A DNA stretch of 64,000 nt from Bryobacterales bacterium (GTDB taxonomy: Bacteria > Acidobacteriota > Terriglobia > Bryobacterales > Bryobacteraceae). The notes under the pieces were generated by a model, which saw only the letters and a program-made list of their open reading frames with translations, made no database searches and was not told the DNA's origin. Positions 34,464 through 51,157 of this stretch are shown in pieces. The position numbers and the translations under genes were made by a program. The stretch lies in NCBI GenBank assembly GCA_020851655.1, contig JADZCI010000096.1, positions 14,698-78,697 on the forward strand, given 5' to 3'. The stretch's first letter is position 1; every line of letters begins with the position of its first letter.

Positions 34464-35305
34464 TGATCTCACAACCGTTCGAATACTCTCGCCCTGGCAC
34501 ACTGGCCGAGGCGTTGGAACTGCTGTCCGGCGGGTCCACCAAGCCGCTCGCCGGAGGCATGAGCTTGATCCCGATGATGAAACTGCGGCTGGCCGCGCCG
34601 GAGCATCTGATCGACCTGAGCCGGATACCCGGTCTGGACGCCATTTCGGAAGGCGGTGGAAGCATTCGCATCGGCGCGTTGGCGACGCACTATGGAATCG
34701 AGTCGTCTGCGCTAATCCGGGCCAAGTGCCCCCTACTGGCCGAAACGGCGGGCCGCATCGGCGACGTTCAGGTCCGTAATAGCGGCACTATTGGCGGAAG
34801 CGTTGCTCATGCCGACCCATCGTCGGACTACGCGGCGGCGCTGCTTGCTCTTGATGCAACGGTCCACATCGCGGGGCGGAGAGGCAACCGAAGTCTTCCG
34901 TACGCGGAATTTCTCGTCGACACGTTCACGACGCTACTCGAACCCGGCGAGCTGGTTGAAGCCATCGAGATTCCCGCTGAGAATCCGTCCACCGGATCGA
35001 GCTACCAGAAGATGGTTCAGCCCGCTTCGGGCTTTGCGATCGTAGGCGTTGCGGCGCGCGTCGCGCGAATCGCCGGCAAGATCACTTTCGCGCGAATCGG
35101 CATTACCGGACTGGGCTCGAAAGCCTTTCGCGCCGTCAACGTGGAGGCGCTTCTTCTTGCGGGCAACGCCGCGGCGGCTGCCGCAGCCGCCGGCGACGGG
35201 ATTGAAGCCAACTCCGACCTGCATGCCTCCTCACACTACCGCTCGCAAATGGTGAAGGTGTATTGTGCTCGCGCCATTTCGACAGCGCTCTCGAGGGCGG
35301 CGTGA
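34463..35305 (+). CDS. coxM: FAD-binding medium subunit (CoxM/CutM-like)
   Basis: The ATG at 34463 overlaps the coxL stop (TGATG). FAD_binding_5 pattern: FEYSRPGTLAEALELL..KPLAGGMSLIPMMKLR, GTIGGSVAHADP. Confidence 0.85.
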   Translation: MISQPFEYSRPGTLAEALELLSGGSTKPLAGGMSLIPMMKLRLAAPEHLIDLSRIPGLDAISEGGGSIRIGALATHYGIESSALIRAKCPLLAETAGRIGDVQVRNSGTIGGSVAHADPSSDYAAALLALDATVHIAGRRGNRSLPYAEFLVDTFTTLLEPGELVEAIEIPAENPSTGSSYQKMVQPASGFAIVGVAARVARIAGKITFARIGITGLGSKAFRAVNVEALLLAGNAAAAAAAAGDGIEANSDLHASSHYRSQMVKVYCARAISTALSRAA

Positions 35306-35754
35306 AGATCGCCGGCTATTACACGCTCCCGGTCGCCCGGGAACGTGCCTACGACGCGCTTCAGGATCCGGTCTTGCTGGCGCAATGCATGCCAGGGTGC
35401 GAGTCGCTGGAGCCGCTTGGCGAGGACACCTACCGCATGCGGATGAAGATGATTCTGGCCAGCATGAACGGGCTGTTCGAAGGCAAAGTGAAAATTGCCG
35501 AGCCCAGCAAGCCCGAGGAGTTCCGGCTCGTCGTTGAAGGGAATGGGAAGATCGGCTTCATGAAAGGTGACGGGCTTCTTCGTCTGTCCGAGACCGATGG
35601 CGGTACGGATGTCCATTTCGAGGGAGATGTGACGATTGGCGGAACCATTGCCGCCGTTGGCAACCGCCTGGTGGACACCACCGCGAAGATGATGATCAGG
35701 AAGTTCTTCGAGAGGATGACCGAAAAGGTGCGCTCAGAAGCGGCCACTGCCTGA
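35302..35754 (+). CDS. coxG: CoxG-family SRPBCC protein
   Basis: GTG at 35302 in a GTGA overlap with the coxM stop. VKIAGYYTLPVARERAYDALQDPVLLAQCMPGCESLE is the typical CoxG N-terminus. Confidence 0.8.
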   Translation: MKIAGYYTLPVARERAYDALQDPVLLAQCMPGCESLEPLGEDTYRMRMKMILASMNGLFEGKVKIAEPSKPEEFRLVVEGNGKIGFMKGDGLLRLSETDGGTDVHFEGDVTIGGTIAAVGNRLVDTTAKMMIRKFFERMTEKVRSEAATA

Positions 35755-35763
35755 TTGATCTGG

Positions 35764-37266
35764 TTAGTTCCGAGGGTAATTCGGCGAGTACAAGGTCGAA
35801 GTGGGCCGGAGAACCAGCTTCCCTCCGCTGACGAACGTCTCGCCTCGAATGGCAAGGTGTTCGACCATCCGGCGTCGCCATGCCCTCACCGCGGCGTTCC
35901 GGTTTGCGTCTCCGGCGAGATCCTTCAGTTCATGGGGGTCTGCTACCAGATCGAACAATTGCTCCGCGCCGTCTCGCGCGTGAAAGATGTACTTCTCCCG
36001 GCCATCGGTCAAGGCGTTCCAGTGGTTTTCCGGAGAGTAGCAGACGTCATGCTCGAGGTCGATCCAATCGCGCCATCCCTTGCCTTGGGACCGGACCAGA
36101 TCGAGCAGGCTGCGTCCATCCGGCGGCGTTGCGAGCGTGGCGCCGGCGCATTCGGCAAACGTGGGAAGCAAATCGCGCAGTTCCACCGGTTGGGCCATCA
36201 CTTGGCCGCGCGACGCGCTGAGCAACCCAGCCGGCCAGCGCATTAGCATCGGGATCCGCGCTGAAGGCTCATAAGCGTACGACTTGCGCCATAAGTCTTG
36301 ATCGCCGGTCATGTCTCCGTGATCGGACGTGTAAACCACCAGTGTGTTGCCGGTCCAACCCCGGCGGTCCAGCGCGCCGAGAACACGCCCAATCTGCTCA
36401 TCGATGAAACTCACCGATCCGTAGTAAGCCTGCCGGGCAGTCCTCACTTCGGCGGGATCCAGCCGTCCGCGCCACAAGTCATCGCGGAGGGTATTTCGCT
36501 CGACGTTACGCGCAGCCCATGCGCCGGTTGAGGGTTCCGGAATCCGCGCTCCGGCATAGGCGTTCATCCAACGCGGCGCCGGATCGTACGGGCTGTGCGG
36601 CCGGGCGAACGAGACCTTCAGAAAGAAGGGTTCAGGCCGTTGATAGGTTTCCAGGAACCTCACCGCAACATCAGCGGTCCAGCGCGTGGGATGAAGCTCC
36701 TCAGGCAAGACATAGGCCTTTCCCTTGTAGTCGTTCCACCCGACACCGGTTGCGTCGGGGTCAAGATTGGGCGCTTGGGTAGCGAACCAGGCTCTGTAAT
36801 CGCTCTTAAAGTCGATAGACTCGACGCGTCCCGATTCGTCGAGCAAGGCTGCCTGATAGCCATGCAGGTTGCGCTGCGGTTTGTAGTGCAGCTTGCCTAC
36901 GGCCATTGTGAAATAGCCCGAATCCCGCATGATGCGAGGCATCTCCAAAGGATATTTGGCCGCCACGGCGCCGTAGCCGAGCATTCCGTGACGCCAAGGA
37001 CCCATCCCCGTCAGCAGTCCCGCGCGCGCTGGTGTGCAGGTCGGAGTGGTGGAGTATGCGCTCCGGAAGCGCACCCCGTCACTGGCAATGCGGTCCAGGT
37101 TCGGCGTCTTCACCACCGGATGTCCGTCGCAGCTCAAACAATCGCCGCGATGTTGATCAGCCATCAGGAACAGGACGTTCGGCTTGCTGGTTGACTGCCA
37201 TCCGCGAGCCAGCGCGGGCACTGTTGAGACGGCTTCGAGCACTTGCCGCCGTGTCAGCGAGTTCAT
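35764..37266 (-). CDS. sulfatase (formylglycine-dependent, S1 family) with Tat-like signal
   Basis: Tat-like signal MNSLTRRQVLEAV. Motifs NVLFLMADQHRGD and the CxPxR motif TPTCTPARAGLLTG. Confidence 0.85.
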   Translation of the reverse strand: MNSLTRRQVLEAVSTVPALARGWQSTSKPNVLFLMADQHRGDCLSCDGHPVVKTPNLDRIASDGVRFRSAYSTTPTCTPARAGLLTGMGPWRHGMLGYGAVAAKYPLEMPRIMRDSGYFTMAVGKLHYKPQRNLHGYQAALLDESGRVESIDFKSDYRAWFATQAPNLDPDATGVGWNDYKGKAYVLPEELHPTRWTADVAVRFLETYQRPEPFFLKVSFARPHSPYDPAPRWMNAYAGARIPEPSTGAWAARNVERNTLRDDLWRGRLDPAEVRTARQAYYGSVSFIDEQIGRVLGALDRRGWTGNTLVVYTSDHGDMTGDQDLWRKSYAYEPSARIPMLMRWPAGLLSASRGQVMAQPVELRDLLPTFAECAGATLATPPDGRSLLDLVRSQGKGWRDWIDLEHDVCYSPENHWNALTDGREKYIFHARDGAEQLFDLVADPHELKDLAGDANRNAAVRAWRRRMVEHLAIRGETFVSGGKLVLRPTSTLYSPNYPRN

Positions 37267-37276
37267 CCCTTAAAGC

Positions 37277-38137
37277 TTAGCGTGCAAGGGGACGGACCTC
37301 GACCTCGACTTCCACCGTGTGACCGCCACCGCCGATTGCCACACCTTTCACCGGGGTGACATCACCATAGTCCCGCCCCCATGCCAGCGTGAGATGGTTC
37401 CCGGATGGGAGGACGTCGTTGGTAGGATCGAAAGCCTGCCATCCGCGACTTGGAACGAACACGGAAACCCAGGCGTGCGACGCTTCGGCGCCTTGATACT
37501 TCGTGCCGCTTCGAAGGTACCCGCTGACATAGCGCGCCGCCAGATGCAACGACCGGAGTGTGCCGATCATGATATGCGCGAAGTCCTGGCAGACGCCCGT
37601 TTTGAGCCGAAAGGCCTCAATCATCGGCATCTCGATCGACGTCGATTTCGGCTGGTAATGGAACTCGGTGTAGATCCGGTGCGAAAGCTCCTTCACCGCG
37701 TCGATCAGAGGACGCCGTGGAGTAAACGTGGGTGCGGCGAATTCGAGCAACTCAGGAGTCGTGGTTACGAAAGGCGAGTCGAAAACGAATTCGAGCGCTT
37801 CGAGGCACCCTGGTCCGGTATGATTCGCGATTTCGTTGCGCGCTTCTTCCCAGGTGACCGCCGGTTCGATGGTCGCGGGCTCGGCTTGAACCTCGACGAT
37901 GCTTGTCGCGGTCGTGGTCAGGCGGTCGTGGGTCTCGAAGACGGAGAACGTGGTGACGTCGTTGCCGAAATAGTCTTTCCGGAATTGAAATGAGGCGGGT
38001 TCCGGTTCTACGCGGATGGCCGACTCGTGCAATTGCTGATAGTCGAGGACACGAGGCGTCAGACGCACTTCGTTCAGGCTGTGCGAGACCGGACTTTCGT
38101 AAACATAACGCGTGACATGTCTGGCCCGGTACAGCAT
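37277..38137 (-). CDS. transglutaminase-family protein (Bact_transglu_N + transglutaminase core)
   Basis: N-terminus MLYRARHVTRYVYESPVS. The catalytic Cys region is GVCQDFAHIMIGTLRSLHLAARYVSGYL, followed by His/Asp in SHAWVSVF..GWQAFDPTN. An alternative GTG start lies at 38149. Confidence 0.85.
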   Translation of the reverse strand: MLYRARHVTRYVYESPVSHSLNEVRLTPRVLDYQQLHESAIRVEPEPASFQFRKDYFGNDVTTFSVFETHDRLTTTATSIVEVQAEPATIEPAVTWEEARNEIANHTGPGCLEALEFVFDSPFVTTTPELLEFAAPTFTPRRPLIDAVKELSHRIYTEFHYQPKSTSIEMPMIEAFRLKTGVCQDFAHIMIGTLRSLHLAARYVSGYLRSGTKYQGAEASHAWVSVFVPSRGWQAFDPTNDVLPSGNHLTLAWGRDYGDVTPVKGVAIGGGGHTVEVEVEVRPLAR

Positions 38138-38139
38138 TG

Positions 38140-40689
38140 CTAATCCCACGCCGAGCCGGACAAACGGGACGGCGTCAGGTGACTCAGGAACTTCGCCGTC
38201 AACGCCTCGGACAGTTCGGTCAGATCAGTCCTCAACTGCTTCAGCAGGCGTTCCAAATCACCTAACTGGCCGGCCGATTCGCGTAACGCCAGGTCGTCGA
38301 GACGGGCGAGCCGGACCGACGCAAGAGCCTTGAGAACCAGGCGTTGTTCCAGCGGATAGCGCTCGGTCTCATCACGCTCAGGCAAATGTTCGACGTGCTT
38401 TTGAAGTCTTGACAGTTGGAACGCGACTGACCTCGGATTCCCTTCGTCGGCCAACAGCAGATCCAGGACAAGGCCGGCCCGGAGAGTGGTCAGGTATCGA
38501 GTCCGGTACGTGATTGAGCTGTCGGCGATCTGCAACAGCATCTCGAGGTATGGATCCAAGTCCGCCGGGGCTTGCGCGATTCCGGACCGCAGCAGTTCCA
38601 CCATCTGCAAGGCGCGTTCGATTCGCCGCCCGATGTCCAGGAATCGCCAGCCGTGACCGCGAGTCATGTTCTCCATCAGCAGGCCGGCAAATGCCGACAG
38701 CGTAAAGATGGCATGGTCCAGCAGGTTCATTTCGGCAAAGGGCGGCTGCTCAGGAACGGCCGGCGGCGTTCGTGCGAACTCGGTCTCGAGTTCCTGGAGA
38801 ACGCGCCATGTGTCGGCGGAAAGCCGTTCCTTCAGCCGCCAGCTCAGCCGCCTGATTTGCTTAAGGTTCCAACCCAAACCCGAAATTCTCGCCGGGTCGT
38901 AAACCATGTCGGTCAGCAATCGCTGAACCTGCCAGCGCTGCTGGGCCAGCGACAACTTGGGCGATTCCGGCGGAAGCAGGTATAGGCCGGTGAGCAGACG
39001 GATACAGGTATCAAGCGACGCGGATCGTCCAAAATCCTCCTCGCCTGAAAGACCCGGCAGCAACACACGCACCAGCCTGACGCCGCCCTCGACGCGTTCG
39101 GTGTACCGGCCTAGCCAATAAAGGTTATCCGCGACCCTGCTTGGAAGATCTCCCTGGTTGCGGCGGGCGTCAACCTCGACATTCATGGGGCGAGAGGGAG
39201 ACACGTGCTCGTCGGCGCTGCCCAGCACCCAGGTATCCTTGCTACCGCCGCCCTGCTGCATAGTAACGACAAGCGACTGGTCCGCGGTCGAAACCCGCGT
39301 GAGCCCTCCCGGCATAACCGTGTAACCTTGCCCATCCCAGGCTGCGAAGACCCGCAGCGAAACGTGCCGCGGAACCAATCCCGTATCAGTCCGGACCGGC
39401 GCGCTGGAAAGCGCCACCTGCTCCTGCGCGACAAATTGCTCCGGCTCAGCCTGTATGCGATGTGCGAGTTCGCGCCGTTCGCCGTCCGGCATCGAAGCCG
39501 GAAAGTACGGATGATGGCCCAGCCGTGCGAACGCCGGCTTGATCACGACTTCTTCCAGGTGGTCCAGCACATACCGCAGCGGCGCATCCTGGCCGCACCA
39601 CCACGTGGCGACCGAGGGCATCAGCAGTTCTTCGCCCAGCAGGCGCTGGCACAGTCCTGGCAGAAACGCCATCTGTGCGGGGGTTTCCATCAACCCGCTG
39701 CCCACCGCGTTGGCCAAGGTCACCGTCCCGCTGCGTACCGCCTGCATCAACCCCGGAACACCCAGGAGCGAATCGCTGCGCAATTCCAGCGGATCGCAGT
39801 AGCTGTCGTCCAGGCGCCGCAAGATCAAGTCAACGGGATCCAGACCGGCTAACGTTTTCAGGTAGACCCGGTTATCGCGCACAGTGAGGTCCGCGCCTTC
39901 GACCAGCGGGAGTCCCCAGTACTTGGCTTGAAACGCGTGCTCGAAGTAGGTCTCGTTATTGGGTCCGGGTGTTAGCAACACCATGCGCGGGCTGCTCCGT
40001 CCGTTGGCCGCCGTAGCCAGGAGGCCGTTGCGCTGCGCATCGAAATACCGGCCCAACTGGCGCACCTGGTACTGTGAGAACACGTTGGGCAGCACCCGCG
40101 CGCTGACCAGCCGGTTCTCGAGTGCGTATCCCATGCCGGAAGGGGATTGGGTCCGGTCCGTGATCACCCACCAGCGGCCATCGGGGGAACGCGCCAGGTC
40201 GGCCGCGTAAGCGTGGAGGAACACGCCGCCCCGCGGTACAATCCCGGCCGCGGGCCGCGGAAAATGCGGATTTCCGTACAGCAGGGCCGGCGGGTAGCGA
40301 TTCTCATGAATCAACTCTTGCGGTCCGTATAAATCGCGCAACAACGAGTCGAGCAATTGCGCTCTTTGTGCGATGGCGCGCTCAATAAAAACCCATTCTT
40401 CCTCCGCGATGATGAGGGGAATCGGATCCATCGGCCACGGGCGTTCCTTCCCTTGCGGATCGCCGTACACGTTGTAGGTGATTCCGTTGCTCTGAATCAC
40501 CTGGATTCCGGTTTGCCAGCGGCGGCTGAGTTGCTGGAATCCCATGCGGCCTACGGCCACCACGAGTTTGCGCCAGTGTTTCCGAGGGAAGCCGGAAGGT
40601 AATAGCGCCTCGTCCCAGTGCCCCTCGATTGGGACGTATTGCCAACCTGGGGCCTCAGTCGTAGAGCCCAGTCTCAAGTTCCTCACCAA
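38140..40689 (-). CDS. fused circularly permuted type-2 ATP-grasp + alpha-E domain protein
   Basis: 849 aa. The N-half parallels the 482-aa ATP-grasp gene at 45045-46493 (same block order, e.g. [10 protein letters not shown]). The C-half parallels the alpha-E gene (ADNLYWLGRYTERVEG versus ADAVYWMARYIERAEN). Confidence 0.85.
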   Translation of the reverse strand: MVRNLRLGSTTEAPGWQYVPIEGHWDEALLPSGFPRKHWRKLVVAVGRMGFQQLSRRWQTGIQVIQSNGITYNVYGDPQGKERPWPMDPIPLIIAEEEWVFIERAIAQRAQLLDSLLRDLYGPQELIHENRYPPALLYGNPHFPRPAAGIVPRGGVFLHAYAADLARSPDGRWWVITDRTQSPSGMGYALENRLVSARVLPNVFSQYQVRQLGRYFDAQRNGLLATAANGRSSPRMVLLTPGPNNETYFEHAFQAKYWGLPLVEGADLTVRDNRVYLKTLAGLDPVDLILRRLDDSYCDPLELRSDSLLGVPGLMQAVRSGTVTLANAVGSGLMETPAQMAFLPGLCQRLLGEELLMPSVATWWCGQDAPLRYVLDHLEEVVIKPAFARLGHHPYFPASMPDGERRELAHRIQAEPEQFVAQEQVALSSAPVRTDTGLVPRHVSLRVFAAWDGQGYTVMPGGLTRVSTADQSLVVTMQQGGGSKDTWVLGSADEHVSPSRPMNVEVDARRNQGDLPSRVADNLYWLGRYTERVEGGVRLVRVLLPGLSGEEDFGRSASLDTCIRLLTGLYLLPPESPKLSLAQQRWQVQRLLTDMVYDPARISGLGWNLKQIRRLSWRLKERLSADTWRVLQELETEFARTPPAVPEQPPFAEMNLLDHAIFTLSAFAGLLMENMTRGHGWRFLDIGRRIERALQMVELLRSGIAQAPADLDPYLEMLLQIADSSITYRTRYLTTLRAGLVLDLLLADEGNPRSVAFQLSRLQKHVEHLPERDETERYPLEQRLVLKALASVRLARLDDLALRESAGQLGDLERLLKQLRTDLTELSEALTAKFLSHLTPSRLSGSAWD

Positions 40690-40732
40690 GCGAGTTCGAG
40701 ATTCCTAGCAACCATTGAATCACGTCCACGAT

Positions 40733-43700
40733 TCATGCCGGCGGCCGGCGTAGATCCAGGGTCGTGGGAAATTCGGGGTTGCGCTCCTCGGGCGCGAGGA
40801 CAACCGGCCCCGGCGTATGGCCAAACGAAAAGAATCGCGCCAGGCGCCGCGCCTCGGCTTCATTCGAGTTCACGGGAAACGTCTCGTAGTTCCGTCCTCC
40901 GGGATGAGCCGCGTGATAGGCGCACCCCCCGATGGACCGTCCCGCAAACGTGTCCACGACATCGAACACCAGCGGCGTATGCACCGGGATTGTGGGATGG
41001 AGACACCGTGGGGGCTGCCACGCCCGGTACCGGACCCCACACACAAATTCGCCATGTGTCCCGGTGGACTGAAGCGGGAGCCGCCGTTTGTTGCAGGTCA
41101 GCGCATACCGCTCCGGCAGCAATCCCTTGACTCGCACCTGCATGCGTTCCACCGAGGAATCCACGTACCGCGTCGTGCCTCCTCCGCCGGGCTCCTCTCC
41201 CAGCACATACCAGGGTTCAATCGCCTGGCGAAGCTCCACTTCGATGCCATCGTAGGAAACTCGTCCATAGAACGGAAACCGGAACTCGATGTGCGGCGCA
41301 AACCAGGCGGTTTCCAACGGGTAGCCGGCGCGATTCAGACCGGCGATCACCGCGCCGAAGTCGTGCTCGACAAAGTAAGGGAGAAGGAAGCGGTCGTGCA
41401 GCCGGGTCCCCCACCGGATAGGCCGCTCATTGTACGGCAGTTTCCAGAACCAGGCCACCAGAACCTGCACAAGCAACTGCTGTGTCAGGCTCATCCTGGC
41501 GTGCGGCGGCATTTCAAAGGCGCGCAATTCGAGAAGCCCCAGCCGGCCCGCGGAGCTATCCGGTGAGTACAGCTTGTCGATGCAGAACTCGGCCCGGTGG
41601 GTGTTGCCTGTCACGTCAACCAGCAGGTTGCGGAAGATCCGGTCCACCAGCCACGCGGGACAATCGCCAGCTATTCGGTTCAGCAGTTGGAACGCGATTT
41701 CCAGTTCATACACCGCGTCGGCGCGAGTCTCGTCGACACGCGGCGCCTGGCTTGTTGGACCGATAAACACGCTCGAAAACAGGTACGACAGGGACGGGTG
41801 ATTCAACCAGTAGCCCACAAAACTCTTCAGCAGATCGGGCCTTCTCAGGAAGGGGCTATCGGCGGGCGTGGGCCCGCCGAGAACCAGGTGGTTGCCGCCG
41901 CCGGTCCCGGTGTGCCGGCCGTCCAGCATGAACTTCTCCGCACCAAGCCGGCTGAGCCGCGCCTGCTCGTAGAGAGTCGTGGTGTTGTGAACCAGTTCGT
42001 TCCAGGTGTGCGACGGCTGAACGTTGACTTCAATGACTCCGGGGTCGGGGGTCACCTTGAGAAGCCGGAGCCGAGGATCGAAGGGCGGAGGATAGCCCTC
42101 AACCGATACGGGAACGCCCAAGTGCGCGGCCGTATCTTCGATCGCCGAGATCAGTTCGACATAGTCGCTGGCTTTTTCGAGCGGCGGAAGAAAGATGCAG
42201 AGCCTTCCTTTTCGAGCTTCCACCGCCAAGGCGGTACGAACCACCGCGCCCATCTGCTGCCCAGGTTTGTTGGCCCGTGTCTCCACCATTTGCTGGCGTG
42301 GTGTGACGGGGCTTCGAAACGTGCCTTCGTGAAACAGGCGGTGCGGAACCGGCAGCGGCGGAGCAGCGGGCGATAGCGGATCAATCGTCCAGACACGCTG
42401 CGCGCGGTCCTCGGGTTCCCAGGGCAGACTCTGCAGCGGGAGCCGGAATCCCACGGGCGAATCACCCGGAATCAGAAAAAGACGCCGCGCCCGCAGCATC
42501 CACAAGCCGCTCTGCCACTCCGGACCGGACTTGCCCCAAACCCGCATCAGAGGCAGGATGAACCCGGAAGGCTGCCCCAAACCATTTTCAAAGACCCGGC
42601 GCAGCCGTTCCCGTTCTTCCGGATCATCCAGGTTGTTGTCGATCGGGTCGACATTGACCGGCAGTTGCCGTTCTTTGAGCGAGTAAACAATGGGGTCCTC
42701 GTATGCCGCAATGACGTTGTCCGCATCGACTGAAAGGCGCTGCGCCAGAGTTTCGGCGAACCGTTGAGCATCGCTGGATTGAAAGCCGTAGTCGTGTCCC
42801 GGATCCGCAATCCACTTGGCGTCGTTCCACAGCGGTACGCCGTCGGCACGCCAGTAGCAGGCGAACGCCCAGCGGGGCAGCGATTCGCCCGGGTACCACT
42901 TGCCTTGCCCGAAGTGCAGCAGGCCTCCCGGCGCGAAACTCTCGTGCAGACGGCGGAGCAAGCCGCTCGCCAGGCGCAGTTTGGTGTCGCCCAACGCGGA
43001 TGTGTTCCACTCTTCTCCGTCCATGTCGTCGATGGACACGAAAGTGGGTTCGCCGCCCATCGTCAGCCGGACGTCGGCGGCGAGCAATTCAGCGTCGGTG
43101 CGTTCTCCCAACGCGCAGATTGACCGCCATTGTTCATCGGTGTACGGCTTGGTGACGCGAGGATCCTCGTGGATTCGTGTCACCTTCATGTCGTGTTCGA
43201 ACTCCACCTGCGATGCGCTCACCTTGCCGGACACCGGCGCCGCGGACATTGGGTCCGGCGTCGCCGCCAGGGGAATATGTCCCTCGCCGGCAAACAATCC
43301 CGAGGTCGGATCCAAGCCGACCCATCCGGCGCCCGGAAGGTAAGCCTCACACCACGCATGCAGGTCCGTGAAATCGTCATCGGCCCCGGCGGGACCGTCT
43401 AGCGGCTTCACGTCGGGCTTGAGTTGAATCAGATACCCCGAGACAAACCGCGCCGCCAGCCCGAGGTGGCGGAGGATCTGTGTCAGAAGCCATCCTGAAT
43501 CGCGGCAGGATCCGCTTCGCAACGACAGCGTCTCTTCCGGCGCCTGAACGCCAGGTTCCATCCGAATCAGGTAACGAATTTCGTGCTGGAGGCGCTGGTT
43601 GAGATCGACCAGGAAGGAAATCGCCGGCTGGGGCGTTAGGTCGATGGTTGCCAGGTACTCCCGAAGTCCCGGTCCGGCCGGCTCACACGCCAGAAACGGA

Positions 43701-44044
43701 CTCAGTTCAACCTTCTGCCAGTCCTCGTACGCGAACGGGAACTTCTCCGCATACGGCTCCAGAAAGAAGTCGAACGGGTTGATGACCGTCATTTCAGCGA
43801 CGAGATCGACTTCGACGGAGAAATACTGGGTGGGTTTCGGGAACACCAGCCGGGCCAGGAAATTGCCTTGTGGATCCTGCTGCCAGTTGATGAAGTGGTC
43901 CTTTGGTTGAATCTTGAGCGAATAACTGGAAACCGGCGTCCGGCTGTGTGGGGCGGGACGGAGGCGCACGATCTGCGGTGATAATGTCACCAGCCGGTCA
44001 TACTGATAGACCGTCTTGTGATGCAGGCCAACGCGAATCCCCAT
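40733..44044 (-). CDS. large transglutaminase-family protein (Bact_transglu_N + TGase core + DUF2126-like C-terminal region)
   Basis: About 1103 aa from the ATG at 44044 (MGIRVGLHHKTVYQYD), in an ATGA overlap with the alpha-E stop. The TGase Cys block is GSCRDSGWLLTQILRHLGLAARFVSGYL. Confidence 0.85.
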   Translation of the reverse strand: MGIRVGLHHKTVYQYDRLVTLSPQIVRLRPAPHSRTPVSSYSLKIQPKDHFINWQQDPQGNFLARLVFPKPTQYFSVEVDLVAEMTVINPFDFFLEPYAEKFPFAYEDWQKVELSPFLACEPAGPGLREYLATIDLTPQPAISFLVDLNQRLQHEIRYLIRMEPGVQAPEETLSLRSGSCRDSGWLLTQILRHLGLAARFVSGYLIQLKPDVKPLDGPAGADDDFTDLHAWCEAYLPGAGWVGLDPTSGLFAGEGHIPLAATPDPMSAAPVSGKVSASQVEFEHDMKVTRIHEDPRVTKPYTDEQWRSICALGERTDAELLAADVRLTMGGEPTFVSIDDMDGEEWNTSALGDTKLRLASGLLRRLHESFAPGGLLHFGQGKWYPGESLPRWAFACYWRADGVPLWNDAKWIADPGHDYGFQSSDAQRFAETLAQRLSVDADNVIAAYEDPIVYSLKERQLPVNVDPIDNNLDDPEERERLRRVFENGLGQPSGFILPLMRVWGKSGPEWQSGLWMLRARRLFLIPGDSPVGFRLPLQSLPWEPEDRAQRVWTIDPLSPAAPPLPVPHRLFHEGTFRSPVTPRQQMVETRANKPGQQMGAVVRTALAVEARKGRLCIFLPPLEKASDYVELISAIEDTAAHLGVPVSVEGYPPPFDPRLRLLKVTPDPGVIEVNVQPSHTWNELVHNTTTLYEQARLSRLGAEKFMLDGRHTGTGGGNHLVLGGPTPADSPFLRRPDLLKSFVGYWLNHPSLSYLFSSVFIGPTSQAPRVDETRADAVYELEIAFQLLNRIAGDCPAWLVDRIFRNLLVDVTGNTHRAEFCIDKLYSPDSSAGRLGLLELRAFEMPPHARMSLTQQLLVQVLVAWFWKLPYNERPIRWGTRLHDRFLLPYFVEHDFGAVIAGLNRAGYPLETAWFAPHIEFRFPFYGRVSYDGIEVELRQAIEPWYVLGEEPGGGGTTRYVDSSVERMQVRVKGLLPERYALTCNKRRLPLQSTGTHGEFVCGVRYRAWQPPRCLHPTIPVHTPLVFDVVDTFAGRSIGGCAYHAAHPGGRNYETFPVNSNEAEARRLARFFSFGHTPGPVVLAPEERNPEFPTTLDLRRPPA

Positions 44045-45045
44045 CAGAGGTTGCCCTGCGCCTGTATCTGCGCCTGCGCCGGCGGCTCCCATCCGAAGAA
44101 ATCCTTCGAAAGGCTGTCTCCGAGGCCATTGAGCTTCAGTTGCAGCCCGTCCAGATATTCGTGCAGCCCATCCCGAATGACATGATCGACGGACGTGAAG
44201 TCCAGCTCAGCCCGCAGGATCCCCATCAATTGTTCGGAACGGTAATGGAAGGACCCCAGGGGCGTGCCCGTGATGGCATGGAGGGACTGATCCGCGCACG
44301 CCACGCAGTACCGGATGGCGCGCGGAAATTCGTCGTCCATCACCAGGAACTGCACGATGTCTCTCGGACGCAGCCTGCCGTATTTCTTCCGGTACATCTC
44401 GAACCCGCTGACCGATTTCAGCACCGCGGACCAGTGGATATCGTCGTAAGGTGTTCCAACGTCCGTCACCGCCGGCAGCAGCATGAAGTACTTGACGTCA
44501 AGGATGCGGGACGTTTTGTCGGCGCGTTCCATCTTCCTTCCCAGCCGCACAAAGTGCCACGCCTCGCTGTGCGTCATGGTCGTATCCGTGATTCCCTGGA
44601 ACATGTGGCAGGACAACCGGATGTTGCGGAAGAATTCCGGCAGCCACTCCGGTTCCGGCATTTCATGCTGGCCCTGAAACTGCAGGTACATGCTGTTGAC
44701 CTGCTCCCACATCTCCGACGAAATCGTCTCGCGTACCGATCTTGCGTTTTCGCGCGCCGCCCGCAGGCACGAGCAGATGGAATTCGGATTGGCGGGATCA
44801 AACGTCAGAAATTCGATGACATGATCGAGCGACGGTTCGCCGTAACGCTCACAGAACATCTTGGCGTCGCCACTCGTATCGATCAGCGGGCGCCACTGAT
44901 AGGCGGGCGCAACCGGCAGGTCCAACTGCAGGTGCAGGTTCACACCGATGAACCGCGCCACGTTCTCGGCGCGCTCGATGTAGCGCGCCATCCAATACAC
45001 CGCGTCCGCAACGCGGCTGAGCAGCGGGCGGTAGGCGCTGTTCAT
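44044..45045 (-). CDS. alpha-E domain protein (DUF403)
   Basis: About 333 aa from the ATG at 45045 ([28 protein letters not shown]), in an ATGA overlap with the ATP-grasp stop. Confidence 0.85.
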   Translation of the reverse strand: MNSAYRPLLSRVADAVYWMARYIERAENVARFIGVNLHLQLDLPVAPAYQWRPLIDTSGDAKMFCERYGEPSLDHVIEFLTFDPANPNSICSCLRAARENARSVRETISSEMWEQVNSMYLQFQGQHEMPEPEWLPEFFRNIRLSCHMFQGITDTTMTHSEAWHFVRLGRKMERADKTSRILDVKYFMLLPAVTDVGTPYDDIHWSAVLKSVSGFEMYRKKYGRLRPRDIVQFLVMDDEFPRAIRYCVACADQSLHAITGTPLGSFHYRSEQLMGILRAELDFTSVDHVIRDGLHEYLDGLQLKLNGLGDSLSKDFFGWEPPAQAQIQAQGNL

Positions 45046-46493
45046 CAGGCGCCTCCGCGAGCGGACAGAACCCACGTGTCTTTGCTGCCCCCGCCCTGCG
45101 ACGAATTCACCACCAGTGAACCTTTGCGAAGAGCCACTCGCGTCAGCCCTCCCGGCAACACAAAAATGTCTTGCCCGTAAAGTATATAAGGCCGCAGGTC
45201 GACGTGACGCCCTTCCAGCCGGCCGTTGATCAGTGTCGGCACGCGGGAAAGCGCGAGCGTCGGCTGTGCGATGTAGTTTCGCGGGTTGGCTTCGATTTTC
45301 GCCGCGAAGTCCTCGCGCTGCGCCGCGGTCGAATGCGGGCCGACCAGCATTCCGTAGCCGCCGGCTTCGTTGGCCGACTTCACCACCAGCTTGTCGAGGT
45401 TGGCCAGCACATGCTGCCGGTCGGAGTCACGCCAGCAGAGATAGGTCGGAACGTTCGGCAGGATGGCGTCCTCGCCTTCGTAGTAGCGGATCATTTCAGG
45501 AACGTAGGAGTAGACAACCTTGTCGTCCGCCACACCGTTGCCCGGCGCGTTCGCCAGCGCCACGTTCCCCGCCCGGTAAGCCTCCAATAGACCTGGCACC
45601 CCCAGCATCGAGTCCTTGCGAAACGCCTCAGGATCCATGAAGTCGTCGTCAATCCGCCGGTAGATGACATCCACCTTGCGCAGTCCCTTGGTGGTGCGCA
45701 TCCACACCATGCGGTCATGCACCACCAGGTCGCGTCCCTCGACCAATTGGATACCCATTTGCTGCGCCAGAAAACTGTGCTCGAAATAGGCCGAGTTGTA
45801 CATGCCAGGCGTGAGCAGAACGACAATCGGTTTGCCGGAGGCGGTCTCAGGCGCAATGGACTCCAGCATCTCCAACAGTCGGCTTGGATACACGTCCACC
45901 GGCCGGACATCCAAACCTTCAAAAACCTGTGGGAACGTCCGCTTCATGATGTCGCGGTTTTCCAGGACGTAGGAAACGCCCGAGGGTACTCGCAGATTGT
46001 CCTCGAGGACATAAACCTGGCCGTCGCCATGGCGCACCAGGTCGGTGCCCGTAATGTGGCACCAAACCCGGCGCGGCGGGTCTATCCCGTGACACTGCGG
46101 CCGGAAGAACGTTGCCGACCGGATGATGTCTTCCGGGATCACCTTGTCTTTCAGAATTTTCTGGTCATGATAGATGTCGTCGATGAACTCGTTCAACGCG
46201 TGAATGCGCTGCTTGAGGCCTCGTTCGATCCATGCCCATTCTTGCGCGCCGACAATCCTGGGAACCAGATCGAACGGAAAGATCTTTTCAGCGCCCGCCG
46301 AGTCTCCGTAGACGTTGAAGGTGATGCCCATTTGCAGCAGCATTCGCTCCGCAACTTTTTGGCAGCGAACCAGTTGGCCGTCTTCTAGTGAAGCGAGGGT
46401 CTCCAGCAGCAGACGGGCTTCAGGGCGCGCCGTGCCACTCGCCTCAAACATCTCGTCGTGGAAACCTTCAGTTTGATAAGCGTCCAACCACAC
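45045..46493 (-). CDS. circularly permuted type-2 ATP-grasp protein
   Basis: 482 aa. Conserved blocks: [78 protein letters not shown]. Confidence 0.9.
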
Positions 46494-46576
46494 TTCACAC
46501 CCTCCCTGGGGAGCGGCACTTCTTCCCGAGCTAACCGATTCTCGCAGGAATCCGGTAATCCGGACAATCCAAAGAT

Positions 46577-48430
46577 CTAATGAGGCCTATAGATGGCATT
46601 CACCAGGCGAGTGGTGTATTCGGATTTCACACGGTCCGGCGCCTTGGGATCAGTCAGCGGAAGCGCCTTGACCTGGCTCCGGATCGAATCCGCCTTGTTG
46701 CCAAGCGCATCGATAGCGTTCAGCGCCTGTATCGCAACGTAGGCCCCGTTCCGGACACAATCGGCGAGCCCCAGGAGCAACGGCAGCACACTTTCGAGAT
46801 CCGTGGCGGACCCGAACCGTCCCAATGCCTCCGCGGCGGTAATCTGTACGCTCGGTGAGGTATCCTTCAACGCCTTCTCCAGCGACTCTCTCGTCGCGGC
46901 AACTTCGCTGGCGCCCCTCATCAATACACCCATGACGCCCCAGTACCGGACGCCACTGTCGGCATCCGAGATGGCTTTCTTCAGTTGGCTCGTAACCCCC
47001 GGTTTCAGCGATGCCGCCAATTCGGCCGCGGCGAGAACCCGCGCCGCGGGGTACGCCGCGGCGTCGTGGCCCATTTCATACGGCGCCCTGGCGCCCGCGC
47101 GCGAATGCATCTCGGCTTCAGGCAGCAGACCGGCATCCCGAATGTGCAATTCGTGCTCGTGGTGCACTTTTCGGAACCTCGCCATCACTGCTGCGTGGTC
47201 GGGCGCGGTGGCAAGGTTCTTGACCTCATCCGGGTCGGTTCGCAGGTCATACAACTCCTCGGCGGGCTTTGGCTCCCAGAAATAGGTTTGCGGAGGCTTG
47301 AGCTTGCCTTCTTTGTACAGCCGCTCCCAAACGCGTGTGGTGGGCGTCTCCCACATGTAAGCCAGGTATTGCCCGTAGATCTTGTGTGGCATGTAGTTCC
47401 TGACGTACACATAGTTCTGATCCCGCACCGAGCGGATGCAATCGTAACGCTCGTCCATCCGGCCCCGGAAGCCAAATGAATACGGGCGCGGAGACGTGTG
47501 ATGCGGCCCCATGAAGGCGTGTCCCTGGTAAAATTCCGGTGCTTTGAGGCCGGCAAGGCTCAGCATGGTTGGCGCGAGGTCGACGAAGCTTACCAGCCGG
47601 TTACTCTTGCCGCCCACCGCATACTCTTTGGGCGCCAGGGATCGGAACTTTTCTGGAATCGACGCCACAATCGACACGTTGAGACCGGAGTTGTATGGCC
47701 AGCGCTTGCTTCTTGGCATCCCGGATCCGTGGTCGCCGAAAAAGAAGACAATCGTGTCTCGCTCCAGACCGTCCTGCTCCAGTTCCGCCAGGATGCGGCC
47801 TGCCTGGCCATCCATGGTTGTGATGTTGTCGTAGTACTGCGCCCAATCCTGCCGGACTTCCAGGGCGTCTGGATGATAGGCCGGCACGCGCGCCTTGGCT
47901 GGATCGTGCACCCACTTGTGCGGCCGCGTCCGGATTTGACTCTCATGGGTGATGGTGAAGTTAAATACGGCAAAGAACGGCTGCCCCGGTGCGCGATTCC
48001 TCCAATGCGCCTTGGTGCTCGAATCGTCCCAGGTGCCCGGCGGTTTCTCCAGGTTGTAGTCTTCCTTCACGTTGTTCGAACAGTAGTAGCCGGCCTCCCG
48101 TAAGTACCCCGGAAACATCTTCCACCCCGCCGGCATCCGCGTCATCGATCGCATGTGTTCCGAGCCGGTGGAAGGCGGGTAGACACCCGAGATGATCGTA
48201 GTCCGCGCCGGAGCGCAGACGGGGGCGTTCGACCATGCGTTCATGTAGATGGTTCCACGGCTGCACAACTTGTCCAGGTTGGGCGTCACCGAGTAGGAGT
48301 CGCCGCAGGCGTGCAAGTGTGGCCCTGTATCCTCGCAGGTCAGCCAGAGAATGTTGGGCCGGGGTCCTGGCGCGCCGCTTATGGCGGTAGTGGATGCCAA
48401 CCCCGCGCTGAAGCGCCGCCGTGTAATCAA
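46577..48430 (-). CDS. sulfatase with C-terminal HEAT/PBS-lyase-like repeat region, Tat-like signal
   Basis: Tat-like signal [13 protein letters not shown]. Motifs [11 protein letters not shown] and the CxPxR motif [14 protein letters not shown]. The C-terminal roughly 160 aa carry HEAT-like repeats ([14 protein letters not shown]..., [18 protein letters not shown]). TTG start overlaps the GH78 stop. Confidence 0.85.
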
Positions 48431-51033
48431 TTGCCACCTCCGTGCCGTTTGATGATCCCTTGAAACTGATGCCGTCCTGAGCCGGTGCGTGAGATGGAAC
48501 CTCCAGGCAGGCGGACCGCGGCTGTCATCCCCGGCGGAATTTCAACATCCAGCTTCAACCGTTCCCCCTCGGTTTCCCAATTCACCTTAACCGGCCCGCG
48601 TGGCGAATTCCACTCGGCCTTGACCCACTTGACATCGCCCGCCGGGTCCGGCTCGATCAAGATATTTCTGAGCCCGGGCGACCGAGGGTCGGGCCGGATT
48701 CCCGCCAGCCCTCCGTAGAACCACTCCTCGATATGTCCGAGCATCAGGTGATTCTGCGAGCTATGAGGATTGGCGTCCCAAGCCTCGGTGAGCGAGGTCG
48801 CCCCAGCCGAAAGTTGAGCCGCATAGCTTGGCGCTACAGGATTGTTGGCCAGGTCAAAGACCACGTCGCTCCGCTTGGCTTCCAGTAAGGCGCGCAGCAC
48901 GTACCGGTAACCAATATCGCCGGCGCTCGTATGATTGCCGCGCCCGCGTATGTCGCTGGCCAGCTTTTCGACCAGCGATGCGCGCGCCTCCGGCGGAGCG
49001 AGGTTGAACGCCAGCGGCATCGCCAGGGATGTCTGGCTGCCCGTCGCGTAGGTCTTCCGCTGGGCATCATAATACTCGCGATTGAACCGGGCCCGCGTTT
49101 CCGCGGCGCGGCCAGCGTAGTGTTGCGCGTCGGCCTCGAACCCGAGCATCCTTGCCACCCGTTCCAGAACGCGCAGATCCTCGTAATAGGTAGCCGTGGC
49201 GGTCACACCTTGTGGCGTCAGTTGCGAATACCCTGGTCCTTTCGGACCGATGTCATACCAGTCCCCTAGTCCGTACTTAAGCAGTCCGTCCTCGGTTCTC
49301 GACCCCAGGTAATTCACATAGCCCTTCATCATCAGGTAGGAGTCCTTCAGCACTGAACGGTCGCCATACCAATTCCAAGCCTGCCACGGCACAAAGACCG
49401 AGGCGGAGCCCCATTCCGGCGAGTCACGGAAACCGCCTCGAAAGGCAACGTACTCCGGCGCAATGTCCGGCACCAGGCCGTTCACCATTTGCGACTCCCG
49501 CATGTCGCGAGATGTCTTGGGAAGCAGGGTCCGGAGATCCCAGTTGTACATGAGTGAGGCGCCCATCAAGTAGGTCTGCTCGAGCCATCCCAGCTTCTCC
49601 CGATGCGGACAGTCTGTGATCACATGCTGCAAATTGCTGCGGATCGCCGCATCGATCAATGCGTGAATCCGGTTGAACCGTTCGTTGGAACTCGAAAACG
49701 AGCCTACGCGCGGCGCGTCGAGATGAACGAATTGCCCCTCCAGCTTCTCAACCTTGGCGTCTCCCTCCACCTGTACGTACCGGAATCCGTAATAGCTGAA
49801 GCGCGGCGACCAGGTCTCCGATCCACGGCCGTTCAGCGTGTAGCTGAACCACACCGGACTTCCCGAAGACCTTTGGCTCACCAGTCCGGAGCCATCCAAC
49901 AGCTCGCCGGGCGTCATCTTTACCGCCGAGCCCGCCGGCCCGCTGACCGTGGCCCGGGGCCAGCCGGAGAAGTTCTGCCCCAAGTCATAGACCGTGATGC
50001 CAGGCTTTGGCTGCGTGATCCTGACAGCCTGGAAAGTCTGCTGCACGCGAATCGGCGGGCTGGATTGCGCTCTCATCGCGCCGCCGGGCGCCTCCACGGT
50101 CGTGACGCTTTGCCAGGCGGAAGCATCGAAGCCAGGCTGGTCCCAGCCGCTCAGCTCATTCCGTGCGTCATAGTCTTCGCCTCCAAAGATGCACGAGAAC
50201 GTCACCGGACCTTCCCGCGTCCGCCAGGCGCTGTCCGTAGCGACGTCAGTGGTTTTCCCGTCGGAAAATTCGATGTGCAGCATCATCCAAAGCCGCGGAT
50301 GACCGAATGAGCCTGTGTATTTCGTGTACCGCCCGCCGGCCACGTTGTAGAAGCCGTTTCCCAGCATCACTCCCACGGCGTTCGGACCCGGCCTTAACCG
50401 CTCCGTAATGTCGAATGTCTCGTACATCACCGTCGCCCGGTAATTCGTCCAAGCGGGCGCCAGCACATGGTCGCCGATGCGCGCACCATTCACATGCAGT
50501 TCGTGGAAACCGGCGCCCGCCACCATGGCCACAGCCCGCCGCACGGGCTTGTCTGCCGTAAACTCCCTGCGAAACAACGGCAGAGGACCGGAGCGCAGGC
50601 TGTGGTCGGGATGAGCGATCCATGCGCCTTTCATGTCGCCCGGGCTTAACATCGCCGTCGTCCACGACGCTGCTGCGCTCCACTCGGATGGCTTCAGACT
50701 TTGGTCCCATACCCGAACCCGCCACCAATACTGTTGGAATGGGTGCATCGCGGAACCGCGATACTCGATCCACAGGCTCTCCGGGGACGCCACCCGCCCT
50801 GAGTCCCACATGCCGGGTGAATTCAGCCCTTCAGGGCTCGTCGCAACCACGATCTGATAAGCCGTCTGGCCGAGGCCGGCTTGGTCCGCCGCCAGTTTCC
50901 ACGACAAGCGGGGACGGAGGTTGTCGATGCCGGCGGGATTGACGCGCGCCTCACACTCCAGGCCGTAGGGTGTGAGGCCCGCGGCCGCCGTGGACGCCGC
51001 AATGCAAATTAAACCGGCGAAGCGAAAATTCAT
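48427..51033 (-). CDS. alpha-L-rhamnosidase (GH78)
   Basis: 868 aa with a signal peptide. LECEARVNPAGIDNLRPRLSWKL is the typical GH78 N-terminal block. The six-hairpin catalytic region contains TDCPHREKLGWLE. Confidence 0.85.
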   Translation of the reverse strand: MNFRFAGLICIAASTAAAGLTPYGLECEARVNPAGIDNLRPRLSWKLAADQAGLGQTAYQIVVATSPEGLNSPGMWDSGRVASPESLWIEYRGSAMHPFQQYWWRVRVWDQSLKPSEWSAAASWTTAMLSPGDMKGAWIAHPDHSLRSGPLPLFRREFTADKPVRRAVAMVAGAGFHELHVNGARIGDHVLAPAWTNYRATVMYETFDITERLRPGPNAVGVMLGNGFYNVAGGRYTKYTGSFGHPRLWMMLHIEFSDGKTTDVATDSAWRTREGPVTFSCIFGGEDYDARNELSGWDQPGFDASAWQSVTTVEAPGGAMRAQSSPPIRVQQTFQAVRITQPKPGITVYDLGQNFSGWPRATVSGPAGSAVKMTPGELLDGSGLVSQRSSGSPVWFSYTLNGRGSETWSPRFSYYGFRYVQVEGDAKVEKLEGQFVHLDAPRVGSFSSSNERFNRIHALIDAAIRSNLQHVITDCPHREKLGWLEQTYLMGASLMYNWDLRTLLPKTSRDMRESQMVNGLVPDIAPEYVAFRGGFRDSPEWGSASVFVPWQAWNWYGDRSVLKDSYLMMKGYVNYLGSRTEDGLLKYGLGDWYDIGPKGPGYSQLTPQGVTATATYYEDLRVLERVARMLGFEADAQHYAGRAAETRARFNREYYDAQRKTYATGSQTSLAMPLAFNLAPPEARASLVEKLASDIRGRGNHTSAGDIGYRYVLRALLEAKRSDVVFDLANNPVAPSYAAQLSAGATSLTEAWDANPHSSQNHLMLGHIEEWFYGGLAGIRPDPRSPGLRNILIEPDPAGDVKWVKAEWNSPRGPVKVNWETEGERLKLDVEIPPGMTAAVRLPGGSISRTGSGRHQFQGIIKRHGGGN

Positions 51034-51157
51034 TCTGGTCTGCCTCTCATGGGACGGGCGTGCGAAGCCACTGTGCGAAACTGCAGCGTATCACTCGCCG
51101 CTGGGCGATGAAGGCAATCACCCTGGAAACCTCGAAAGCCGTTATGATCTTCTTGTC

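Follow-up and report, generated by a model that had tools for sequence, protein, structure and literature searches.

The DNA analysed here (the window, 64,000 nt in full) comes from a Bryobacterales bacterium of the family Bryobacteraceae (assembly GCA_020851655.1, contig JADZCI010000096.1). Between positions 37277 and 46493, it carries five co-directional open reading frames (ORFs) on the minus strand, labelled G1 to G5 in transcription order, which form an operon of the circularly permuted (CP) ATP-grasp/alpha-E/transglutaminase type. The operon encodes three domains predicted to act as ATP-dependent carboxylate-amine ligases, namely two circularly permuted ATP-grasps and one glutamine synthetase (GS)-like DUF2126 domain. 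Alpha-E domains and papain-fold Cys-His-Asp transglutaminase-like domains are present twice each. The operon is an ordinary member of a known orphan type that seems to have come to lie among sulfatase genes by chance.

Gene content of the operon

G1: 45045-46493, minus strand; stand-alone circularly permuted ATP-grasp ligase of 482 aa, with a GTG start and the ribosome-binding site GGGAGGG.
G2: 44044-45045, minus strand; alpha-E protein of 333 aa from the ATG at 45045 (the ORF extends to 45075).
G3: 40733-44044, minus strand; transglutaminase-like and DUF2126 protein of 1103 aa from the ATG at 44044 (the ORF extends to 44092).
G4: 38140-40689, minus strand; fused circularly permuted ATP-grasp and alpha-E protein of about 849 aa, its start uncertain by a few codons (TTG at 40689, GTG at 40686 or TTG at 40677).
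G5: 37277-38137, minus strand; small transglutaminase-like protein of 286 aa from the ATG at 38137.

The true starts of G2, G3 and G5 were set by reading the junctions and by the points at which relatives begin to align, and the corrected lengths match those given in an earlier note on this DNA. The same note described the G1/G2 and G2/G3 junctions as ATGA overlaps. Read from the sequence, they are TGATG, at 45047-45043 and 44046-44042, respectively, and in each case the TGA stop and the ATG start share one base. The spacing between G3 and G4 is 43 nt, and G5 follows the fused G4 after 2 nt, as had been reported.

Domain composition and integrity

The five co-directional genes and the domains first assigned to them by inspection are borne out by ORF and Pfam analysis, in which all five proteins matched the expected hidden Markov models very strongly. 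G1 matches CP_ATPgrasp_2 over its full length (E value 2.7e-172), G2 matches Alpha-E (E 2.9e-101), and G4 combines a full-length CP_ATPgrasp_2 (E 5e-148) with a C-terminal Alpha-E (E 4.8e-69). G3 consists of Bact_transglu_N, Transglut_core and DUF2126, the last scoring 1319 bits across positions 3-826 of the 826-position profile, and G5 of Bact_transglu_N and Transglut_core. No NCBIfam model matched any of G1-G5. The ATP-grasp, alpha-E and Cys-His-Asp transglutaminase components that define the CP-ATP-grasp/alpha-E/transglutaminase amidoligase type are each present. Framing the operon as an amidoligase-peptidase system of the kind predicted by Iyer, Aravind and colleagues, with an orphan substrate, also holds.

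For the assessment of integrity, each protein was aligned with 50-75 homologues from related loci, and positions shared by at least 95% of the relatives were taken as conserved. All 88 such positions are kept in G1, 140 of 142 in G4, and all 43 in G5, including its triad C187/H225/D241 (ORF numbering). The triad of G3, C180/H229/D245, is invariant across 54 sequences. In G2, the invariant residues are R11, W18, R21, Y22, E24, R25, R31 and R174, and the alpha-E Glu-Arg motifs E24-R25 and E173-R174 are conserved. With its domain matches and its catalytic and conserved residues retained, this copy of the operon is intact as far as its sequence tells. G1 and the N-terminus of G4 share 38% identity, and G2 and the C-terminus of G4 share 23%; these low values imply that the two modules are ancient paralogues and not the product of a recent duplication. 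G5 is 27% identical to the N-terminus of G3, with the Cys, His and Asp residues in register.

The closest solved relative of G1 is PDB entry 3n6x (572 bits), a structural-genomics entry named putative glutathionylspermidine synthase. For G5 and the N-terminus of G3, the structural matches are TgpA and 3isr, a transglutaminase-like putative cysteine protease, with an E value of 2.5e-9 for G5 against 3isr. An AlphaFold2 model of G3 (predicted local distance difference test score, pLDDT, 78.5) gave a fold match of its N-terminal part to 3isr with E 2.4e-13. Its C-terminal part showed weak but consistent fold matches to glutamine synthetases and to the gamma-glutamylmethylamide synthetase GmaS (E 0.01-0.1, probability 0.9-0.99). 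The Rv2566 family has been described as a transglutaminase-like domain joined to a carboxylate-amine ligase (Iyer, Burroughs & Aravind 2008, PMC2588565), and the fold matches of G3 agree with this architecture. G3 belongs to the Rv2566/DUF2126 family, with an N-terminal transglutaminase-like domain fused to a C-terminal ligase domain whose GS-like fold is weakly supported. The AlphaFold2 model of the alpha-E protein G2 is all-helical (pLDDT 87, predicted template modelling score 0.86) and has no significant fold neighbour in the PDB (Foldseek, best E 0.38). Sequence searches of the PDB found no relative of alpha-E and none of the DUF2126 domain.

Gene order among relatives and the absence of Anbu

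Scanning one genome per species yielded 562 relatives of G4, and the best 80 loci were examined (cited below by L numbers). Sixty-two of these had enough flanking sequence for the gene order to be judged. The collinear arrangement G1-G2-G3-G4-G5 occurs in 40 of the 62 evaluable loci, from Acidobacteriota, Verrucomicrobiota and Planctomycetota (a Phycisphaera), and this five-gene double form is the commonest one. The doubling, which the earlier note had treated as a distinguishing feature, is thus the normal state. The proposed split into G1-G2-G3 and G4-G5 is one natural grouping, but G3-G4-G5 alone (10 loci) and G1-G2-G4-G5 without G3 (3 loci) also exist. From these variants, it follows that G4-G5 is the constant core and that G3 groups both ways. 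In other loci, G1-G2 is divergent, in L079 with its own small transglutaminase.

Some individual loci depart further from this pattern. L030 (6706-13317) carries a divergent ATP-grasp (39% identical), an alpha-E and a short transglutaminase, followed by G4-G5. The short transglutaminase aligns with G3 residues 14-307 and lacks the DUF2126 domain, and the locus looks like a true "double canonical triad". Two Bryobacteraceae metagenome-assembled genomes (MAGs), represented by L028 (10001-16001) and L029, have the permuted order G4-G5-G1-G2 and no G3. In L027 and L028, G1 appears in two or three tblastn pieces, which may reflect frameshifts or assembly errors. Among the neighbours, a glutaminase gene (PF04960, E ~1e-112) adjoins the cluster in one related locus and ACT-domain proteins do so in up to two; these are faint hints toward glutamine or nitrogen metabolism.

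Related operons encode the proteasome-like peptidase Anbu. Its absence from this operon, as first noted, extends to the genome, which is 96.9% complete and in which the sole PF00227 match is hslV, located beside hslU on another contig. As a control, the same model matches in Synechococcus elongatus, and the matched protein was taken to be Anbu. The two CP-ATP-grasp, two alpha-E and single DUF2126 domains inside G1-G5 are also the only ones in the genome. Pfam scans of 117 ORFs neighbouring the cluster in relatives (49 immediately downstream and 68 others) showed no Proteasome domain among the 25 most frequent families per scan, a single weak match beyond these families being strictly possible. 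COG2308 had already been found in Anbu-less genomes (Valas & Bourne, PMC3235984). The lack of Anbu is hence no special feature of this copy, and two modules without Anbu are the normal architecture of this cluster type.

Directly after G5, four Verrucomicrobiota loci carry a gene of about 355 aa that combines Peptidase_Mx with a zinc ribbon (Zn_ribbon_DZR_6): L035 (13363-14433), L039 (13371-14438), L054 (6672-7748) and L065 (10035-11102). This is the position at which Anbu-type operons carry their extra peptidase. The four loci share the G1-G5 core with the window but differ by this gene, as Peptidase_Mx is absent from the genome of the window.

Distribution and descent

Among the other genera of the family, 3 of 24 yielded DUF2126. 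The remainder of the order yielded none in 16 genomes, and a sample of 200 high-quality genomes of the phylum yielded none that passed the Pfam cut-off. Its distribution is therefore patchy. G3 is 59-66% identical to homologues from Verrucomicrobiota, Planctomycetota and Myxococcota. In a FastTree phylogeny of G3, the window falls within an acidobacterial clade (support 99), a second acidobacterial group adjoins Verrucomicrobiota, and the tree is largely coherent by phylum. These patterns are taken to reflect mainly vertical descent, with frequent loss and occasional transfer.

A patchy distribution of ATP-dependent ligases and peptidases could also be expected of an anti-phage defence or another conflict system. 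However, PADLOC matched no family for G1-G5, and the very high conservation and phylum-coherent tree are unlike those of fast-evolving defence genes. Relatives moreover carry a sigma-54 (nitrogen-type) promoter, described below. A role in defence is accordingly regarded as extremely improbable.

Putative promoter region

Two elements were recognised between G1 and the upstream sulfatase gene:

Conserved motif ATTAGATCTTTGGAT: 46567-46581, minus strand; 15 nt, with the consensus ATWRRWKYTWTSRAT and typically ATAAGATCTTTGAAT, sharing bases with the stop codon of the sulfatase gene upstream.
Extended -10-like element TGCGAGAAT: 46538-46546, minus strand; 44 nt ahead of the G1 GTG and about 20 nt past the motif.

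The window shares the motif ATWRRWKYTWTSRAT with its relatives in Bryobacterales. Across 1.63 Mb of related loci, the pattern has 11 matches, compared with 0.25 expected from composition, and 10 of the 11 are placed about 55-120 nt before the first gene of the cluster. This includes L015, where the first gene is G3. TGnGAnAAT-like elements occur at equal spacing from the motif in L004, L075, L090 and L010. The motif at 46567-46581 is therefore a candidate operator or promoter element, and TGCGAGAAT may represent the extended -10 of the operon promoter. A conserved motif ahead of the first gene suggests that the operon starts its own transcript, apart from the upstream sulfatase and rhamnosidase genes. 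A generic promoter and terminator scan gave nothing above chance. An Rfam scan of 35000-52000 was negative for RNA families; the conserved leader is therefore no known riboswitch. Since the motif occurs only once in this genome, a regulon could not be defined from it.

Relatives in other phyla are organised differently. Sigma-54 promoters (TGGCAC-N5-TTGCW, 0-2 mismatches) lie about 70-100 nt upstream of G1 in 17 Verrucomicrobiota and Phycisphaera loci, for example at -88 in L048, -92 in L050 and -102 in L060. One acidobacterial locus, L024, also has such a site, at -101 from the G1 start. In the window, no site with up to three mismatches was found upstream of G1, G4 or the rhamnosidase gene, and no sigma-54 promoter was found in its Bryobacterales relatives. 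Judging by these sequences, regulation would differ by phylum, with a sigma-54 promoter in Verrucomicrobiota and another conserved motif in Bryobacterales.

A bolder proposal is that the Bryobacterales cassette swapped the sigma-54 promoter known from other phyla for a lineage-specific operator, ATAAGATCTTTGAAT, with an extended -10, that in this genome it also captured the gene of the exported arylsulfatase downstream of G5, and that it came under the control of a regulator within a broader programme of nutrient (sulfur or nitrogen) scavenging. We consider this doubtful and give it little weight. If true, ATAAGATCTTTGAAT would provide a direct handle to the regulator and the inducing condition of a 15-year-old orphan system.

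Neighbouring sulfatase and rhamnosidase genes

The operon is flanked by the following features:

Arylsulfatase gene: 35764-37266, minus strand; NCBIfam PRK13759 (604 bits), with a twin-arginine/general secretory (Tat/Sec)-like leader, downstream of G5.
Terminator-like hairpin TTGCTGGGCTCGGCAA with a T-run: 35495-35510, minus strand; about 250 nt past the arylsulfatase stop.
Sulfatase gene with HEAT repeats (sulfatase-HEAT): 46577-48430, minus strand; upstream flank of G1.
Glycoside hydrolase family 78 (GH78) rhamnosidase gene: 48427-51033, minus strand; overlaps the sulfatase-HEAT gene by 4 nt.

ORF, Pfam and NCBIfam data confirm a sulfatase 10 nt downstream of the operon and a sulfatase and a GH78 gene upstream on the same strand. 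Only 10 nt separate the G5 stop from the arylsulfatase ATG, which has AAGGG ahead of it, and because of this short gap the arylsulfatase gene is probably co-transcribed with G5 here, outside the conserved cassette. The hairpin at 35495-35510 could mark the end of the transcription unit.

The earlier note described the operon as embedded in a glycan-degradation array. The array is real, but it is common to no relative and gives no functional clue. In the 80 loci, no homologue of the flanking sulfatase or GH78 genes lies beside the cluster, except for one distant, weak sulfatase match. The three same-family genomes with the cluster likewise have no adjoining sulfatase or GH78 homologue: two carry all five genes without these flanks, and the third has G3, a 3-kb insert and then G4-G5. 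The sulfatase-HEAT gene itself was matched in 28 of 41 related genomes, in many of them by full-length orthologues of 56-69% identity. Within this order, the fusion is thus an established family rather than an isolated case. In the six relatives examined, its orthologues occupy unrelated neighbourhoods. A reconstruction of an empty site, with GH78 and the two sulfatases in the absence of the cassette, was attempted; as the sulfatase-HEAT orthologues all lie in unrelated contexts, an insertion event was not demonstrable. Read by eye, signal-peptide-like N-termini are present on the flanking enzymes, and none is obvious on G1-G5. Unconserved flanks, sulfatase-HEAT orthologues that reside elsewhere and exported-looking flanking enzymes together suggest that the embedding is a lineage-specific juxtaposition.

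A functional tie between the cassette and the sulfatase and GH78 genes was nevertheless considered. The cassette might process amino-sugar or peptide moieties set free from a sulfated rhamnose-containing glycan, or take part in sulfatase maturation. Eight co-directional genes with short gaps, among them the 10 nt between G5 and the arylsulfatase and the 4-nt overlap of GH78 and sulfatase, would fit such a tie, as would an array without a convincing internal terminator. This is countered by the lack of conserved linkage with a sulfatase or glycoside hydrolase, which would characterise a sulfated-glycan utilisation locus, and by the sulfatase-HEAT orthologues found elsewhere. Furthermore, a motif of the operon's own is conserved at the stop codon of the sulfatase gene, and the exported look of the flanking enzymes contrasts with the cytoplasmic look of the cassette proteins. 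The tie is thus very unlikely.

Related systems

The canonical Anbu operon (Valas & Bourne 2008; Fuchs et al. 2017; Piasecka et al. 2018) consists of an ATP-grasp (COG2308), an alpha-E protein (COG2307), a transglutaminase-like protein (COG1305) and Anbu. G1 and G2 belong to the same families as its first two genes, are found in the same order and are translationally coupled, and a transglutaminase-like domain comes next. The operon differs in that Anbu is missing from both operon and genome, an 820-residue GS-like ligase domain is attached to the transglutaminase, and a second ATP-grasp/alpha-E/transglutaminase set follows.

A second comparison is with the Rv2566/Rv2567/Rv2569c cluster of Mycobacterium tuberculosis. 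We take Rv2567 to be a fused ATP-grasp/alpha-E protein and Rv2569c a small transglutaminase-like protein, the counterparts of G4 and G5, respectively. The M. tuberculosis equivalent of the G1-G2 pair is presumably Rv2411c-Rv2410c, located elsewhere in the genome. In the window, by contrast, the stand-alone ATP-grasp and alpha-E pair precedes G3-G4-G5 in one operon. The giant transglutaminase-like and carboxylate-amine-ligase protein has the architecture of Rv2566 (PMC2588565). Homologues of G4 and G5, with 48% and 44% identity, were also found in L043, a MAG labelled Mycobacteriaceae. Rv2569c has been described as a cell-surface serine protease that cleaves E-cadherin, in a text that does not mention the transglutaminase fold (2024, PMC11081392). 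This report sits oddly with an operon-encoded, cytoplasmic Cys-His-Asp enzyme.

Glutathionylspermidine synthetase/amidase (GspSA) serves as a mechanistic analogue and not as a family assignment. In this enzyme, a carboxylate-amine ligase that uses ATP is paired with a papain-like thiol amidase able to undo the bond that the ligase makes, and its synthase activity is the one after which the depositors named 3n6x, the relative of G1. The thiol domain of the operon is, however, of the transglutaminase-like and not the CHAP type, its fused ligase is GS-like instead of an ATP-grasp, and GspSA has no counterpart of alpha-E.

Proposed function

The locus is best read as an intact, vertically coherent, cytoplasmic five-gene amide-ligase/thiol operon in its normal Anbu-less double form, with its own upstream element and with the arylsulfatase gene as a lineage-specific passenger. 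The probability of this reading as a whole is put at roughly 0.6. Each ATP-grasp would work with an alpha-E partner, which is a separate protein in the case of G1 and G2 and part of a fusion in G4. These modules and the GS-like domain of G3 would jointly form gamma-glutamyl or isopeptide-type amide bonds, for which the acceptor may be a cellular metabolite or peptide that is highly conserved. Hydrolysis or transfer of bonds of the same type would fall to the two thiol domains, in G3 and G5. The system is probably part of a nutrient (nitrogen) starvation response.

A make-and-break amide system that acts on a conserved metabolite or peptide, and in which the ATP-grasp requires alpha-E, is suggested by the ATP-grasp/alpha-E fusion in G4. 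It is also suggested by the missing tag gene together with the extreme conservation across phyla, and by the likeness to GspSA as a pair of ligase and thiol amidase. The ATP-grasp homologue of Yersinia bercovieri has been reported to free inorganic phosphate from ATP (PMC6376114). The link to nitrogen comes from the sigma-54 promoters of Verrucomicrobiota and from Pseudomonas putida, in which the genes of the Anbu-type operon are the most upregulated ones under nitrogen limitation (PMC3235984).

Protein tagging in the manner of Pup or ubiquitin is a serious rival to this reading, although an unlikely one. The ligases would then attach single amino acids or short peptides to side chains in target proteins, with alpha-E acting as adaptor or acceptor and the transglutaminase-like domains as de-conjugating peptidases. 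Tagging is the original proposal for the family, as it is cited in PMC5666114 and PMC6376114. The GS-like ligase fold also occurs in the Pup ligase PafA (PMC2588565), and proteins are the usual substrates of enzymes with a transglutaminase fold. On the other hand, the operon contains no small tag gene and has no room for one, as all gaps are at most 83 nt, and Iyer et al. likewise found no Pup-like ORFs (PMC2588565). In Y. bercovieri, neither stable complexes among the operon proteins nor Anbu activity were detected (PMC6376114). The 59-66% identity of G3 across phyla fits a metabolite substrate equally well.

Several points weigh against the amide-ligase/thiol reading. The GS-like fold match for the C-terminus of G3 is weak (E 0.01-0.1, template modelling score ~0.3), and no member of the family has a known substrate or product. 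Rv2411c and Rv2567 were inactive in the synthesis of GABA (gamma-aminobutyric acid)-trehalose, the sole assay tried (bioRxiv 10.64898/2026.04.15.718621). As no sigma-54 promoter was found in the window or in its Bryobacterales relatives, nitrogen control is less certain for this lineage. Finally, the 10-nt gap between G5 and the arylsulfatase gene might reflect a genuine functional link in this organism.

Meaning for the family

Predicted in 2008-2009, this family is among the most conserved and widespread bacterial operons of orphan chemistry, and its carriers include M. tuberculosis, pseudomonads, cyanobacteria and soil phyla. The copy described here adds no new component. What is new is the Bryobacterales-specific motif in place of a sigma-54 promoter and the arylsulfatase gene that is probably co-transcribed. 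The alpha-E protein stands out as a confidently predicted fold without a solved structural relative. The architecture, the phylum-specific regulation and the alpha-E fold are pointers for work on the family rather than discoveries in themselves, and this copy shows that the Anbu-less five-gene form is its standard architecture.

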